A DNA stretch of 10,950 nt from a virus. Taxonomy: Duplodnaviria > Heunggongvirae > Uroviricota > Caudoviricetes. Made by a program: the position numbers and the translations under genes. The stretch is from the IMG/VR virus record IMGVR_UViG_3300037455_000402, positions 1-10,950 of that record, one strand, 5' to 3'. The notes below the pieces were generated by a model that was not told where the DNA came from, did no database searches, and was given only the letters and a program-made list of their open reading frames with translations. Below are positions 4,286 to 10,635 of the stretch, piece by piece (the first letter of the stretch is position 1; every line of letters begins with the position of its first letter).

Positions 4286-4314
4286 ATTATAGCATAGATT
4301 TTAGATTTTGTAAA
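4286..4314 (-). promoter_or_regulatory. Repeated phage promoter
   Basis: TTTACA-17-TATAAT with TG, followed by ATATATAGAAAAGGTTGAGAG. Confidence 0.8.
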
Positions 4315-4342
4315 GATTTCTGTTATCTAAAATCTTTTTAAA

Positions 4343-4462
4343 TCCTTGCGGCATCTTCAGCTAAGAGTTTGACTAACAGGGACTAATGCCTTACTCCCCT
4401 GCCGCCCCGCATTAAGCGACTCGGTCTTGCTATGAGTTTGCTCTCTGTTTTGATTACAAGGA
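4343..4462 (-). ncRNA. Putative structured RNA (motif B, copy 1) in the tRNA-Asp trailer
   Basis: Closed by TCCTTGT/GCAAGGA; internal hairpins; shares GGGAGTAAGG..TTAGT with 5341-5443. Confidence 0.4.
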
Positions 4463-4465
4463 CAG

Positions 4466-4542
4466 TGGCGAGCACGAAGGGACTCGAACCCTCAACCTCT
4501 CGGGAGACAACCGAGCGTTCTACTCATTTGAACTACGCACCC
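4466..4542 (-). tRNA. tRNA-Asp(GTC), encoded CCA
   Basis: Cloverleaf; anticodon arm CTCGG-TTGTCTC-CCGAG; TTCGAGT T-loop; G73-CCA. Confidence 0.92.
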
Positions 4543-4551
4543 ATTTAATTG

Positions 4552-4780
4552 AGCTGGAAACATTTTATACTCGCCTTTACTGGTCTCACGCTTATCAGAC
4601 ATATCTGCTTCGCCGCCGCCAGCTTTCTAACACTTTTCCTTACGGCTACTCAGAGCCGACAGGTTCGTTATGCGGAAGGACCTGTAACAACCGCGGGCAG
4701 CATTTACCTCGTGCCCTCGCAAGGTAGTCACCTATAGGGGCAACTCCCTGCTCGGTTTTCTTACAAGGAGAACCGAACTA
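4552..4780 (-). ncRNA. Putative structured RNA (motif A, copy 1) between tRNA-Glu and tRNA-Asp
   Basis: No ORF; several hairpins; shares three ordered sequence blocks with 4868-5150; boundaries approximate. Confidence 0.45.
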
Positions 4781-4788
4781 AACCTTTG

Positions 4789-4863
4789 TGGTAGCGGGTA
4801 CGGGACTCGAACCCGTGTCTCTCGGCTGAGAACCGAGCGTCTTAACCACTTGACTAACCCGCC
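4789..4863 (-). tRNA. tRNA-Glu(CTC), encoded CCA
   Basis: Cloverleaf; anticodon arm CTCGG-TTCTCAG-CCGAG; acceptor GGCGGGT/ACCCGCT. Confidence 0.95.
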
Positions 4864-4867
4864 ATTA

Positions 4868-5150
4868 ATACTGTTTGGTGACTAACCTTTCCACTAACAG
4901 TTTAGCGACTTACCACAGTTTAACGTCTACCAAGGTAAGATATCATCGGGTCGTTTCGTAAACCAACGATAGCACTTTCGAGAGTCACTCAGGGCGCAAC
5001 ACTATTCCCTACGGACAACTATACCGCGAAGGCAGATAACAACTGCGTGTCCCCTTTTACTTCTAACGCCAGCGGAGTTTGCGTTTCTTCGTATTTTAAG
5101 ACACCCCGAAAGAAGAGCCGCCGACCAGATTTTTACTTCCTGTCGCTCCA
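4868..5150 (-). ncRNA. Putative structured RNA (motif A, copy 2) between tRNA-Lys and tRNA-Glu
   Basis: No credible ORF; hairpins; shares blocks with 4552-4780; boundaries approximate. Confidence 0.45.
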
Positions 5151-5156
5151 GAAGAT

Positions 5157-5232
5157 TGGTCGGTGTGATGGGACTCGAACCCACACCCTACTGATTAAGA
5201 GTCAGCTGCTCAACCAATTGAGCTTCACACCG
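5157..5232 (-). tRNA. tRNA-Lys(CTT), encoded CCA
   Basis: Cloverleaf; anticodon arm GCTGA-CTCTTAA-TCAGT; acceptor CGGTGTG/CACACCG. Confidence 0.95.
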
Positions 5233-5269
5233 ATTTATTTATTTGTCTTTCTCAACCTTTTCTATAATA

Positions 5270-5298
5270 ATTATATTATAATTTTTATAGAAAGTCAA
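5270..5298 (-). promoter_or_regulatory. Repeated phage promoter driving the Lys-Glu-Asp tRNA/ncRNA unit
   Basis: TTGACT-17-TATAAT followed by TATTATAGAAAAGGTTGAG. Confidence 0.8.
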
Positions 5299-5340
5299 GT
5301 TTTTCTTAATCTTATTTTTTTATTGAAAAGAGAAATAAAT

Positions 5341-5443
5341 TGGTATCGCCCGTCGTGAGAACTAACCCTTACTCCCTACTGGCTTGCCGCCAGACTTACG
5401 ACTAACAACGCATTGACTTTAGGCTTCACTACATATGGCGATT
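5341..5443 (-). ncRNA. Putative CCA-ended structured RNA (motif B, copy 2)
   Basis: ATCGCC/GGCGAT terminal stem + ACCA; GTCGT/ACGAC stem; CTGGC-GGCAA-GCCAG hairpin. Confidence 0.45.
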
Positions 5444-5521
5444 ATATCAGCCTGAGTTCTTCACCGCAACAACCGTGCTTTGTAGGTTTCATTTATTTCT
5501 CTCTCAACCTTTTCTATATAT

Positions 5522-5550
5522 ATTATAATATAATTTTTAAGAAAAGTAAA
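5522..5550 (-). promoter_or_regulatory. Repeated phage promoter
   Basis: TTTACT-17-TATAAT followed by ATATATAGAAAAGGTTGAGAG. Confidence 0.8.
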
Positions 5551-5572
5551 GATTTAAAAACCTTAGAATTTT

Positions 5573-5965
5573 TTACAGTTCTGTGAGAGTATTACCAGTT
5601 ATGACTGACTCATAACCGTCATACTCATCAATACGAATAAGAGTACCCTTCTTATACCAGTCGATGTAAAGACCATCTGCACCGCCGCAGTAAACATCGT
5701 TATAACCGATAGAAGCACAATACTCTTTGAGAGCTGCTTCATCAATGTCTTCGATATTCCACGGACCTTCAGGAGCTTCAGAAGTTGTAACTGTTGCATT
5801 AACAATCAGCCACTCAATTATTCTGTGGTCAAGTGCAAGGTCAAGTTCACCTTCACCTTTATAAGAGTTCCAAGTGGACCAGCCTGCACCATATCCTGCG
5901 GAAACAAGAACGCCTACCCAAGGCTATCCCTCTTTATCATACTTTACATATTCCTTAATTGCCAT
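5573..5965 (-). CDS. Conserved phage hypothetical protein, 130 aa, with one in-frame TAG (codon 14)
   Basis: AAAGGAAG RBS + ATG; MAIKEYVKYDKEG*PWVGVLVSAGYGAGWSTWN...YCGGADGLYIDWYKKGTLIRIDEYDGYESV...EL-TAA; the GYGAGWSTWN/IDEYDG motifs resemble a recurring phage family (from recall). Confidence 0.82.
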
Positions 5966-5996
5966 TTAATATCTTCCTTTCTTTGACTGAAATTTT

Positions 5997-6116
5997 TGGT
6001 GGAGCCTGCGGGCATTGCACCCGCACCTCGGGGCTCCCCAGCCCCGCGTGCTGCCTAAAACTGACTTTCCTAAAGCGTCCTCTAAGTAGTATCGGTCCGC
6101 TTGACACCCAAGCCCC
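5997..6116 (-). ncRNA. tRNA-like RNA, 120 nt, Ala-type acceptor, greatly expanded D-loop, 8-nt anticodon loop
   Basis: GGGGCTT/AGGCTCC-A-CCA (G3:U70); GTGT/GCAC D-stem; CGGGG-CTGGGGAG-CCCCG; GCGGG-TGCAATG-CCCGC. Confidence 0.7.
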
Positions 6117-6117
6117 A

Positions 6118-6327
6118 TATTAAACACTAAATAGCTGACATAGCTTCCATTATGTGGTGGAATCGAACCACCTATTCTACGATTGGCAGCTGACATAGTG
6201 GATTTCTCACTCTCTTTCTTGCGGCGTGAGCTGTACAATCTCACTAAAGAGCGTCCGAATATTTTCCAAGCCGTTCCTCTCTCTTATCGTTTCCAGACTC
6301 GCTATGCCAGCTATTTAGTATTTAATA
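6118..6327 (-). ncRNA. Structured RNA with a 27-bp terminal helix and a tRNA T-arm (Y-RNA/YrlA-like candidate)
   Basis: 6118-6144 and 6301-6327 are fully complementary on the minus strand (2 G-U pairs); GGTGG-TTCGATT-CCACC at 6156-6172. Confidence 0.65.
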
Positions 6328-6334
6328 ATTTTAC

Positions 6335-6411
6335 TGGTGCGGTTAGAGAGACTCGAACTCTCAAGACTTCGGTTCTTAGCCGAAGATGTCTGCCAGTTGC
6401 ATCATAACCAC
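6335..6411 (-). tRNA. tRNA-Leu(AAG) with a short variable loop, encoded CCA
   Basis: GTGGTTA/TAACCGC-A-CCA; TTCGG-CTAAGAA-CCGAA; GAGAG-TTCGAGT-CTCTC. Confidence 0.88.
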
Positions 6412-6418
6412 ATTTAAT

Positions 6419-6525
6419 TGGTGGAGACTACGGGAGTTGGAACCCGCTTCGACCGTTTCTTTCAACGGCGGCTCAGGAGACTTCCATCGAAGCACTCCCC
6501 GAGATACTGACCTCTGCCAGTCCCC
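6419..6525 (-). ncRNA. tRNA-like RNA, 107 nt, Ala-type acceptor, D-arm replaced by a long hairpin
   Basis: GGGGACT/AGTCTCC-A-CCA (G3:U70); GCCGT-TGAAGAA-ACGGT; GCGGG-TTCCAACT-CCCGT. Confidence 0.7.
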
Positions 6526-6529
6526 ATTT

Positions 6530-6998
6530 AAAAGTGAGGTAGTAGTTCCACTATCCAGTCACTACCAACCAAGGTAGAAAGGTTGTTTTCCACTAAACGC
6601 AGGAAAATTCTCCTAAAAGCTGCTGCCCCGTCAATTTGTTAATCGCCTTTCAGTTCTGCCGCCGTACCTCTTGCGGTCGGAGAACTTTAGTGGTCAGCGG
6701 ATTTCGACTCTTCCCGACCACACACGCTCATCTGCGATGCCCTACACCCACTTACGTGACCTAAGGCTGGTCTATGTCAATCTTGATGGCTTTAGTCAGG
6801 ACTTGGTGTTGAGCTTCTCTGTTTCTGTCGTGATTGGTGAGTTCCCGACTTCAGGCGGCATTGCGTCACCCCAGCTAAGTGTCACCAACAGTTCTTTGGA
6901 CTTACTTCATCATTGCCCCCTTGGGTTAATGAATGCCAACCCTCGCACAAGCCCAGATTAAAACCATCAAGACTATCGGTTACAATTGCTTCACATTT
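6530..6998 (-). ncRNA. Large structured ncRNA, ~470 nt (ROOL/GOLLD-like candidate)
   Basis: No credible ORF; 25/27-bp long-range helix 6779-6805/6948-6974; several nested stems; lies in a phage tRNA cluster; family assignment unverified. Confidence 0.55.
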
Positions 6999-7047
6999 AT
7001 ATAGCGGAGAACTCAGAAACCGTACCGAACCGTGTACCGCTTATTTA

Positions 7048-7320
7048 TTACTCAGACTGAGTTTCATTGATTATCTTCCAGAAAGCGTAGACAGGAACAT
7101 CATCAAGCTCGCCGCTGTAATCGTAGTCGATATTCTCAGCATTTACTGTAAGAAAAAGCTCTTCAACAGTAGCATCTTCAGCAAGTGTAGCGAATACCCA
7201 CTCAACTTCGTGAACAGCAGGTTTGCCGTTCTCGTCAACGTCTTCTTCATCAACAAGCCAGTAAGTTCCATCATCTTCACGATGAACTGTGAATTCAATG
7301 TAAGAGCATATTGTTTTCAT
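7048..7320 (-). CDS. Small acidic hypothetical protein, 90 aa
   Basis: AAAGGAAG RBS; own promoter; 24 D/E residues; TAA stop. Confidence 0.85.
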   Translation of the reverse strand: MKTICSYIEFTVHREDDGTYWLVDEEDVDENGKPAVHEVEWVFATLAEDATVEELFLTVNAENIDYDYSGELDDVPVYAFWKIINETQSE

Positions 7321-7355: not shown

Positions 7356-7384
7356 ATTATAGCATAATTTTTGAAATTTGTAAA
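7356..7384 (-). promoter_or_regulatory. Repeated phage promoter
   Basis: TTTACA-17-TATAAT with TG, followed by ATATATAGAAAAGG. Confidence 0.8.
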
Positions 7385-9194: not shown

Positions 9195-9223
9195 ATTATA
9201 TCATAATTTTTTATTTTTGTAAA
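9195..9223 (-). promoter_or_regulatory. Repeated phage promoter (overlaps the 3' end of the brxL-like gene)
   Basis: TTTACA-17-TATAAT with TG, followed by ATATATAGAAAAG. Confidence 0.8.
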
Positions 9224-10635
9224 GACTTTATCTTTATAGAGGGCATCTTAACATCTTCATATTCCTCATCGAGATGACGTAACTGACAAAGGACCGCCCA
9301 TCTCATTCTGATAGCAGGCTGGAGGCAGTAGGTATTGAAATCTTCTATGTTAACATCTGCAACAGACTTAACCTGCGGGAAAAGTAATTTCAAATAAGCT
9401 GTGCAAGTCTTCTTGATAGCTTCAAAGTTTCTTGTATCGCAGTTACCCTCTATTTCAAGAATCTCGTCAACGATTGCTCTGTAGTAAAACTCATTACGAA
9501 GTTCGTGGAACATACCTGTAAGATAGTTTGCGCTTAAGCCCCAGCCCTCATACTTCTTATTCTCAGTGAAACGTCCTATCTTCCAACCTTCGATGATACC
9601 AGAGAAGCGGTCAAGGAACGCTGACTCCTTAAACATCTTAGGAAGAGTGGAGAACATATTGTGCTTCTCGAAGTCCATTTGACCAATCGGAATATTACCA
9701 ACAAGGGTAAGACCTGCATCGGCTGAACCGCAGTAGTTACCAATACGAATTTCACCATTTTCAAGATAAGGCTTGAGCACACCGTTCATTTCCTCAGCAT
9801 TTGCACACTTGATAGTCTGGCACTCGTCCCATATTACGTTGTCGTAACGAGAGAAGTAACCAACTTTCTTAGTGGCATTGTTGTAAAAAGCTGTAGCGCG
9901 GCTGACTGTACCAGAAGTAAGCCAGTTATGAATTGAAAGCTGTGAATAGCAGTATGACTTACCACTACCCTTGATAGCTAACTCTATCTGATTAAGTCTC
10001 TTCTCTACGAAAGGAAGAAAACGCTGAAGGAGAGTTAACTTGCCCTCCTTATCAAATCCTTTGGGATTGAAGTTAAGACCTGCAAGAAGAACATCTATCC
10101 ACTCATCTGTGGTGTACTGCTCTCTACCCTTCTGGTACTTCTTTAACTCAAAAGTGTATGGACAAAGTGGCTTAAACTCGACGAGCTTAACCATACCACA
10201 ATCATAACATAGAGTTGCTTCACCCCAAGCACCATCAGGATTGAGAAGGTGATTTTTAGAATGAGCAATTGTGGACCAGTCGAGCTGTGCTTCATTCTTC
10301 TTCTTAGGGAAGCCATATTCGGGAAGACTAAAGCAAATTAACTCATTTGCATAGTCAAACTCGACTACGACCTTTGTAAGAAGTTTAATTTCTCCTTTTG
10401 CAGTATGAGCTGCTTCAAGGAGTTTTAAGTTCCATTCGTTTGTCTTTAAACGAAACTCCTTAACGTATTCGCTTAATTCAAATGCCTGAAGAACACCTTC
10501 ACGATTTGTGAATTTCTGGAGTAACCAAGACTTTACGTCAGCAGGTAAATCAAGAAAATTTGCGAGAGTATTACCTGATGTAGTCTTGTTGATTGTCGCT
10601 TCGGGAAATGCCCCGATTAACTTTGTGTAATCCAT
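9211..10635 (-). CDS. brxL: BrxL-like MCM-related AAA+ ATPase lacking the C-terminal Lon protease domain, 474 aa
   Basis: R..YTTDEWIDVLL, LLQRFLPFVE, Walker A ELAIKGSGKS, Walker B VIWDE, LVGN, SAFLDRFSG.I.GW arginine-finger region; ends soon after the ATPase domain. Confidence 0.85.
   Translation of the reverse strand: MDYTKLIGAFPEATINKTTSGNTLANFLDLPADVKSWLLQKFTNREGVLQAFELSEYVKEFRLKTNEWNLKLLEAAHTAKGEIKLLTKVVVEFDYANELICFSLPEYGFPKKKNEAQLDWSTIAHSKNHLLNPDGAWGEATLCYDCGMVKLVEFKPLCPYTFELKKYQKGREQYTTDEWIDVLLAGLNFNPKGFDKEGKLTLLQRFLPFVEKRLNQIELAIKGSGKSYCYSQLSIHNWLTSGTVSRATAFYNNATKKVGYFSRYDNVIWDECQTIKCANAEEMNGVLKPYLENGEIRIGNYCGSADAGLTLVGNIPIGQMDFEKHNMFSTLPKMFKESAFLDRFSGIIEGWKIGRFTENKKYEGWGLSANYLTGMFHELRNEFYYRAIVDEILEIEGNCDTRNFEAIKKTCTAYLKLLFPQVKSVADVNIEDFNTYCLQPAIRMRWAVLCQLRHLDEEYEDVKMPSIKIKSLQK

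Follow-up and report, generated by a model that had tools for sequence, protein, structure and literature searches.

Two conserved families of tRNA-like RNAs with an alanine-type top half and no anticodon loop in a phage tRNA locus

The stretch of DNA analysed here (the window, 10,950 nucleotides) is the start of a complete record of 186,457 bp from an uncultured virus. Open reading frames cover 0.53 of the sequence, and 0.81 once TAG is taken as a Gln codon. ARAGORN reports 55 genes in this phage genome at a relaxed threshold and 49 at the default one, including two CUA tRNAs, two tRNA-Ala(UGC) and one full tmRNA (24252-24602; 107.8 bits on RF00023); neither an SmpB gene nor an AlaRS gene was found in the genome. 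The major capsid protein is 34% identical to its counterpart in phAss-1, a code-15 gut phage whose host is predicted within Clostridia in the accessible part of its description (PMC10607447); from this likeness and from sigma-70-type promoters, and from these only, we infer the host of the present phage. A Pfam scan of 85 phage proteins revealed two RNA ligases, Thg1 and a kinase-HD protein, which fit a pressure on the phage tRNAs and hold no pointer to the RNAs described below. Elsewhere in the window we noted a BrxL-like ATPase with an N-terminal BrxL domain (9211-10635, minus strand) in the early region of the phage; a stretch (1400-2830) with few ORFs, repeated GGAGCTGC and GGCCCGGG motifs and a purine/pyrimidine-skewed tract, seen by eye, which is possibly an origin or terminus region; and gaps between tRNA-Asp, tRNA-Glu and tRNA-Lys (4345-5460, minus strand), which are 78-98% conserved in relatives and may contain more RNAs.

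The locus of interest lies on the minus strand and reads, in order, a promoter-like site, a 90-aa ORF, RNA D, element B, tRNA-Leu, RNA C, element A and a 130-aa ORF. The first of these (7356..7384) is a sigma-70-like promoter match (11/12, with TG), and the same scan found no terminator-like site between it and position 5690. Judged by sequence, it would drive the ORF at 7048-7320, D, B, tRNA-Leu, C, A and the ORF at 5573-5965 as one transcript. RNA D (6533..7030) is a conserved, structured RNA of about 500 nt directly upstream of B, with no Rfam match; it is 91% identical over 499 nt in the relative L021, lacks about 190 nt in L049, has changes on both sides in 9 of the 69 predicted pairs of its 3′ half, and is present in parts in contigs of all four RNA-library runs, from four studies. 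tRNA-Leu(AAG) (6335..6411), called by ARAGORN and scoring 41.7 bits in Rfam, sits between B and A. RNA C (6117..6330, about 214 nt, fold z-score -6.2) consists of a long terminal stem around a domain of a D-arm-like element and a T arm (6146-6202); it lacks an anticodon arm as well as a free CCA end, and is 96% identical in L022, L046 and L047. It is reminiscent of Y RNA; no YrlA match was found at RNA C, and its arm order differs from what we take to be that of YrlA. A DUF2828 + DUF7788 protein, encoded at 49753-51231 of the phage genome (minus strand) between the tRNA array and two more tRNAs, is a possible candidate for an RNA-binding partner of RNA C. The 130-aa ORF (5573..5965), downstream of A, is open only with TAG as Gln, matches no Pfam family and is absent beside A or B in the relatives examined; among its own distant relatives (15 loci), the six scanned had no A/B-type RNA.

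An earlier note on this DNA had placed two tRNA-like RNAs at A and B, and its account of their location, 7-bp acceptors, G3:U70, A73, CCA and T stems is borne out, on the minus strand. Element B (6419..6525, minus strand, 107 nt) has an acceptor, a T arm and an encoded CCA: the acceptor, GGGGACU/AGUCUCC, forms 7 bp with G3:U70 and is followed by A73 and CCA, and the 5-bp T stem, GCGGG/CCCGU, carries an 8-nt T loop, UUCCAACU. Its interior comprises a 5-bp D-like hairpin with a 4-nt loop, a long variable helix with a tetraloop, and a 5-bp hairpin with an 8-nt loop, and B folds in the 7/5 register. The note had described both RNAs as having a hairpin in the anticodon position and an enlarged D region; the D region of B folds as two hairpins, and therefore the hairpin beside the T arm may be a variable arm rather than an anticodon arm. 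On this modelled fold, B reads better as an acceptor, a D-like hairpin, a long anticodon-less arm, a variable-arm-like hairpin and a T arm, and a weak alignment to tRNA-Sec assigns the arms the same way. The last loop of B contains UUGAAA, which resembles a Phe anticodon loop but is out of register with the stem.

Element A (5997..6116, minus strand, 120 nt) is built on the same top half, with an acceptor (GGGGCUU/AGGCUCC, 7 bp, G3:U70), A73, encoded CCA and a T arm formed by GCGGG/CCCGC (5 bp) and the loop UGCAAUG; the connector is GGU in A and GAA in B. Its interior is an irregular arm of about 60 nt, followed by a 7-bp hairpin with a 4-nt loop and then the T arm. The best fold of the 60-nt arm is a single long irregular rod. 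A five-arm fold was rejected, since in all four rows of the alignment of A with its homologs it is less stable, by 1.7 to 8.4 kcal/mol, than the long-arm fold; RNAalifold favoured it, but on an alignment one column off for A2 (the A-type RNA of L022 and L046). A long D stem with a tetraloop plus an extra arm, as in allo-tRNAs, fits B and not the preferred fold of A. When folded freely, A is 8/4-like, 3.6 kcal/mol below the forced 7/5 fold, and position 8 is able to pair with 65 in all rows, making an 8/4 register possible. In the window and in L048, the last hairpin of A can also be drawn as 5 bp that close the 8-nt loop CUGGGGAG; the same hairpin is capped by GAAA in L043, and A2 retains the 7-bp stem through a U-A to A-U change, so that the loop is not conserved. 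Folding z-scores are modest for both RNAs (-2.4 for A, -2.2 for B).

As the earlier note had proposed, A and B were compared with known families, and no clean match emerged: ARAGORN made no call for either at thresholds of 100 or 90, and no Rfam family reached its gathering score at either. A has no listed Rfam match. Below threshold, B gave tRNA-Sec (19 bits, cut-off 47) and Clostridiales-2 (RF02937; 16.8 bits, cut-off 58.6). The latter is a weak sequence likeness to the 5′ 70 nt of B and was rejected, as 14/14 control genomes reach that level and the B homologs in L032 and L049 have no match. A search for acceptor, T arm and CCA within 4300-7050 returned five matches, namely three tRNAs, A and B, and 300 dinucleotide shuffles of the same region returned one, with none carrying G3:U70 and A73; five block shuffles of the phage genome gave none. 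Scanning the whole genome for a 7-bp acceptor with a 5-bp T stem, with GC and folding filters and requiring neither G3:U70 nor CCA, found only A and B outside the ARAGORN genes. A and B paired with C, D and the tmRNA no better than shuffles did in 30/30 tests (lowest fraction 0.067). None of the contigs from the RNA runs (4/4) lies over A or B; as small RNAs escape the contigs of such standard libraries, this absence is uninformative. For habitat, runs whose word shares were small were set aside.

BLAST against GenBank phages matched only tRNA-Leu, and exact-type A and B patterns had no match in viral contigs. Three of the five matches to the A pattern (L173, L174 and L176) were set aside as chance. 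A loose pattern gave 24 viral matches, eight of which are clean five-arm or A/B RNAs; the others were rejected, being ends of tRNAs or tmRNAs, short tmRNA-like RNAs or unclear cases. In bacterial genomes (20 of 64 parts searched), 120 loci were found, mostly tmRNA or tRNA-Ala ends; the 99 scored with both covariance models reached at most 30.2 and 38.9 bits, versus 91-106 for training members, and no relative of A or B was found among them. The B model had no match in 151 genomes of one class, in a search without a positive control. The best background of the A model is bacterial tRNA-Ala genes (32-39 bits), which makes an origin from tRNA-Ala plausible.

The earlier note had also argued that pairing kept despite differing sequence speaks against decay, and had suggested looking for covarying homologs; these do exist in related phages, and their alignments contain compensatory changes in both A and B. 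Homologs of B in L022, L046 and L047 are identical to one another and differ from B at one position, and others occur in L049 (three changes) and L032 (74% identical). A-type homologs are those of L048, L017/L043 and A2. In the B alignment, 5/32 pairs are changed on both sides and 97.6% of cells are paired (2/500 shuffles as high). All four rows pair fully in its acceptor and T stem, where pairs 6, 7 and 50:64 are changed on both sides; no change occurs in the first hairpin or in the stem of the last one, and the middle helix is rewritten yet paired. In the A alignment, 6/35 pairs are changed on both sides, five of them in the acceptor, T stem and last hairpin, and 92.1% of cells are paired; 2 to 11 of 500 shuffles do as well on four measures, and 344/500 on the measure of further pair types, which is thus not above shuffles. 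Each alignment holds four related rows, most two-sided changes come from one divergent row, and shuffle counts on four-row alignments are not probabilities. One sequencing run (X2) contains a further B variant, the 11 inner changes listed for which all fall in the middle helix and, read by hand, re-form the hairpin in a shifted register. Between A and B the lower part is wholly different and the top half is kept; the B model gives A 18.5 bits and ordinary tRNAs up to 26.5. These compensatory changes support the view that A and B are maintained RNA genes rather than products of decay.

The possibility that they are decayed tRNA-Ala or tmRNA pseudogenes is already largely refuted and now has next to no probability: the tRNA-Ala background of the A model and the loss of G3:U70 and the final A in A2 would suit it, but every variable helix has two-sided changes, and the RNAs persist across phages at 30-55% protein identity and can have their own promoter-like sites.

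The arrangement of the locus varies among relatives. A occupies the slot of B directly after D in L017 and L048; L049 has B and neither C nor A (5.1-kb locus); in L022 and L046, B, C and A2 are all present. In run X2, a DNA contig joins 6112 to 6522, and DNA contigs of two runs contain a diverged stretch of the same length between the kept ends of B. Two loose contig ends in run X21, at 6427 and 6521, suggest that the slot of B may contain one more element, marked by G3:U70 and a TΨC loop; they lie on different contigs, which makes their link a guess. The B homolog of L032 and the related RNA of L024 each stand alone, 13 and 19 nt behind TTGACA-17-TATAAT/TATTAT sites. These slot swaps, joints and lone promoter-like sites suggest that A and B are exchangeable stand-alone genes with a fixed top half. 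No partner gene travelling with them was seen in the relatives.

The L024 RNA belongs to a third form of 95-97 nt, found with the loose pattern (L024 1501-1597, L027 1501-1596, L036 1501-1595 with L039 and L045, and L194 43239-43333). It has G3:U70, A73, CCA, a 6-bp D stem with GG in the loop, a TΨC loop, an extended anticodon-less arm and a short variable arm; 9/26 pairs are changed on both sides, and its contigs have neighbour or capsid genes in common with this phage. A near copy of the L036 form lies unannotated in GenBank phAss-1 (129238-129332) and keeps G3:U70; the main text of the phAss-1 paper does not mention tRNA-like, tmRNA or non-coding (PMC10607447). With the B model, the third form reaches 27-29.5 bits, as do tRNA and tmRNA ends, so that its descent from B would be conjectural. 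Other viral contigs have short tmRNA-like RNAs without a tag frame (L033 1532-1611, L034 1501-1597, L025 and L085 1501-1605), that of L025 within a 14-tRNA array. An unrelated-looking contig has a 114-nt RNA (L037 314-427) with G3:U70, a single mismatch in the acceptor and an 8-nt loop that contains GUA. L103 and L113, from Patescibacteria bins, carry a G3:U70 RNA of 120 nt that includes a long rod; it scores 32.7 bits on the tmRNA model and adjoins an rRNA and a group I intron match.

All rows have G3:U70, A73 and CCA except A2, which has G2:U71 and G3-C70 and ends in CCG, with every helix kept. Any match to the search patterns had to have GGGG, G3:U70, CCA and the T stem, so that conservation of these marks among pattern matches is built in; of the four members free of this bias (A, B, A2 and the phAss-1 copy), three have G3:U70, the exception again being A2. 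The alanine identity of this RNA group is thus not invariant. According to the accessible part of a review (PMC9976931), G3-C70 blocks alanylation in the systems covered there. Charging of A and B with alanine, which the earlier note had regarded as plausible, remains so from their G3:U70 and A73, with A2 as the exception. A tRNA-Ala(UGC) elsewhere in the phage genome (14267-14342, minus strand) has two acceptor-stem mismatches and a T arm resembling that of A2. In an additive model of EF-Tu binding (PMC3239215, values of Table 2), the T-stem pairs of A/B-type RNAs amount to -10.5 to -11.2 kcal/mol (A -10.7, B -11.2), as compared with means of -10.0 to -10.3 for bacterial tRNA-Ala, and those of A and B are predicted to be of the tight type. 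The T loops vary (UGCAAUG, UUCCAACU, UGCGACU and UGAAAGG); the TΨC motif is missing from those of A, A2 and L032, and that of B has an extra base.

The lower part of these RNAs is not that of a decoding tRNA. A 7-nt loop on a 5-bp stem, the anticodon type, occurs in 0/8 A/B rows, in a test that detected control tRNAs, and GG of the D loop is absent from the best-supported A/B folds. Because no anticodon loop is conserved, decoding and reading by RqcH, which recognizes the anticodon loop of tRNA-Ala in the part of PMC8373112 consulted, are removed. The marks for loading alanine are kept and a codon-reading loop is lacking, and A and B are therefore very probably non-decoding tRNA mimics with an alanine-type top half. 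Conservation falls on the part recognized by AlaRS, EF-Tu, end-processing enzymes and acceptor-end toxins, and variation on the part that the ribosome decoding site and SmpB would read.

We tentatively favour, at less than even confidence, the view that A and B are decoys against host proteins that attack tRNA ends. They would be transcribed in the early, promoter-rich region and probably excised from a precursor in the manner of tRNAs; they would be charged by host AlaRS, which recognizes G3:U70 independently of the anticodon, and the charged RNAs would bind EF-Tu through the tight-type T stem. More speculatively, the abundant top half might absorb or inhibit acceptor-end toxins of anti-phage defence, such as toxSAS pyrophosphokinases and aminoacyl-tRNA acetyltransferases, and so spare the roughly 50 working tRNAs of the phage, with the rigid lower part perhaps keeping the RNAs stable and away from the decoding site. 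The accessible portions of PMC11559606 and PMC7595197 describe the known toxins as reading the acceptor stem and CCA only, and tRNA-end toxins as occurring in Firmicutes and being tied to phage defence. The decoy role would also be compatible with a variant that is not charged, such as A2. Against this role, a plain substrate would hardly titrate a toxin that is catalytic; the phage answer to tRNA toxins found in the available text of PMC11559606 is resistant isoacceptors rather than decoys; and the repeated alanine identity fits a role that requires the amino acid at least as well.

Such a role underlies the main rival to the decoy, which we consider unlikely: a codon-independent alanine acceptor for stalled ribosomes, delivered by EF-Tu or by an unknown phage protein in the role of SmpB, which takes over the nascent chain and frees the ribosome or the 50S subunit. 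G3:U70, A73, CCA and a tight EF-Tu stem are as in the phage tmRNA, alanine is an identity without an anticodon requirement, and in L024 and L027 the acceptor of the 95-97-nt form is identical to that of the phage tmRNA. This would, however, have to accommodate T loops deviating from TΨC, lower arms that exceed an anticodon arm in length, an A2 without G3:U70, the lack of a co-travelling partner gene and the tmRNA that the phage already has. Nor would RqcH serve, since it needs the tRNA-Ala anticodon loop (PMC8373112, as above); the earlier suggestion of an RqcH ligand falls with the lack of a UGC/GGC anticodon loop.

Quite unlikely, too, is that the top halves are processing punctuation, that is, signals for RNase P and 3′-trimming that cut D and C from a polycistronic transcript. 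B or A lies directly after D in all seven loci that have D and the next slot (the window, L017/L021, L022, L046, L047, L048 and L049), and A lies within 1 nt of C in the window and L022/L046. Yet an ordinary tRNA would be equally able to do this, long conserved lower arms are unneeded for cutting, and the L032 and L024 RNAs stand alone behind their own promoter-like sites.

We give little probability to a mini-tmRNA of the CDS-less DS6A type that titrates SmpB and so inhibits host trans-translation. An alanine acceptor and T arm without a tag frame has precedent (PMC4131195, PMC11915505, as far as accessible), and neither a tag-like frame nor the pseudoknot ring of tmRNA was found in the 107-120 nt of A and B. 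Nevertheless, on the tmRNA model (RF00023, cut-off 47 bits) B scores 12.9 and A 9.4 (a fragment), below the phage tRNA-Leu (27.6), and the true short tmRNA-like RNAs of L033 and L034 reach 71.2 and 51.3; neither A nor B matched mt-tmRNA (RF02544), with E values up to 10 allowed. A tmRNA-type D loop was not found in either, and the connector GAC, present in 40/40 tmRNAs matched by regular expression, is replaced by GGU and GAA. SmpB contacts the D and variable loops of tmRNA according to the available part of PMC8363625. The phage tmRNA itself needs host SmpB, as there is no SmpB gene in the phage. An SmpB ligand, as the earlier note had offered, is accordingly disfavoured.

Just as improbable is a role in which the RNAs supply alanine to a transferase that works outside translation, whether on a cell-wall bridge or an alanyl-lipid or as an enzyme of the phage. 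The UGC in the T loops of A and L032 is, in the sections of PMC7826273 at hand, a hallmark of staphylococcal non-proteogenic tRNA-Gly; those tRNAs, however, bind EF-Tu weakly, the A/B T stems are predicted to be tight, and no Fem/MurM/MprF-like family was found by Pfam among the 85 phage proteins, which are part of the proteome. The chance that A and B are mistranslating or frameshifting adaptors, placing alanine at a non-alanine or four-base codon as the earlier note had also considered, is slight indeed. The 8-nt loop CUGGGGAG of A in the window and L048, the UUGAAA of B and the alanine insertion by G3:U70 allo-tRNAs (in the accessible text of PMC5389517) could be cited for it, but no anticodon loop is kept across homologs: the loop of A gives way to GAAA in L043 and to a 7-bp stem in A2, and the UUGAAA of B is out of register.

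These genes are missed by the tools that annotate phage tRNA arrays, as with the phAss-1 copy. Should they be charged mimics, tRNA-shaped RNAs would serve phages in a role beyond decoding; variants with and without G3:U70 form a natural test of the importance of the amino acid, and A/B-type RNAs let one ask if RNA decoys blunt tRNA-targeting defences. It is possible, though rather doubtful as a whole, that a clade of large code-15 gut/rumen phages carries an exchangeable cassette of aminoacylated anticodon-less mimics of at least three structural types, clustered with the undescribed structured RNAs C and D and serving a new RNA-based counter-defence or an SmpB-free control of ribosomes.

Among known RNAs, bacterial and phage tRNA-Ala have the same acceptor identity set and T-stem type and, by sequence, are the likely ancestor of the A/B top half; unlike tRNA-Ala, A and B lack the D-loop GG and the anticodon loop and measure 107-120 nt. 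Staphylococcal non-proteogenic tRNA-Gly (PMC7826273, in the part consulted) similarly has UGC for UUC in the T loop and acts as a charged tRNA outside decoding, but is a cloverleaf with an anticodon and weak EF-Tu binding, in contrast to the tight T stems predicted here. Allo-tRNAs and irregular polycistronic tRNAs, as described in the available part of PMC5389517, have a tRNA-Sec-like scaffold that fits B; some have G3:U70 and accept alanine, and some are charged yet unused in translation. They are, however, 8/4 or 9/3 with an anticodon and mostly G73/U73, whereas B folds 7/5 and A can be folded 7/5 or 8/4, both with A73 and no anticodon loop. CDS-less (TLD-only) tmRNA is known from mycobacteriophage DS6A, from Mallomonadaceae plastids and as mt-tmRNA RF02544 (accessible parts of PMC4131195 and PMC11915505). 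The DS6A RNA resembles A and B as a phage-borne alanine acceptor with a T arm, no tag frame and no anticodon; A and B differ from it in lacking the tmRNA D loop and GAC connector, in having two or three extra helices, and in coexisting with a full tmRNA. A and B fail the tests for membership of tmRNA, CDS-less tmRNA and tRNA-Ala and, for want of an anticodon loop, of allo-tRNA. The literature searched, which held few subscription papers, contained no description of either family. The earlier proposal of an undescribed class therefore holds for the families, which match no Rfam family, and less so for the broad class, which is partly known from the DS6A CDS-less tmRNA and the allo-tRNAs in the sources as available. 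A and B each represent a real and conserved family, as yet undescribed, of a kind with few published examples, the nearest of which, in the accessible literature, is the CDS-less tmRNA of phage DS6A.
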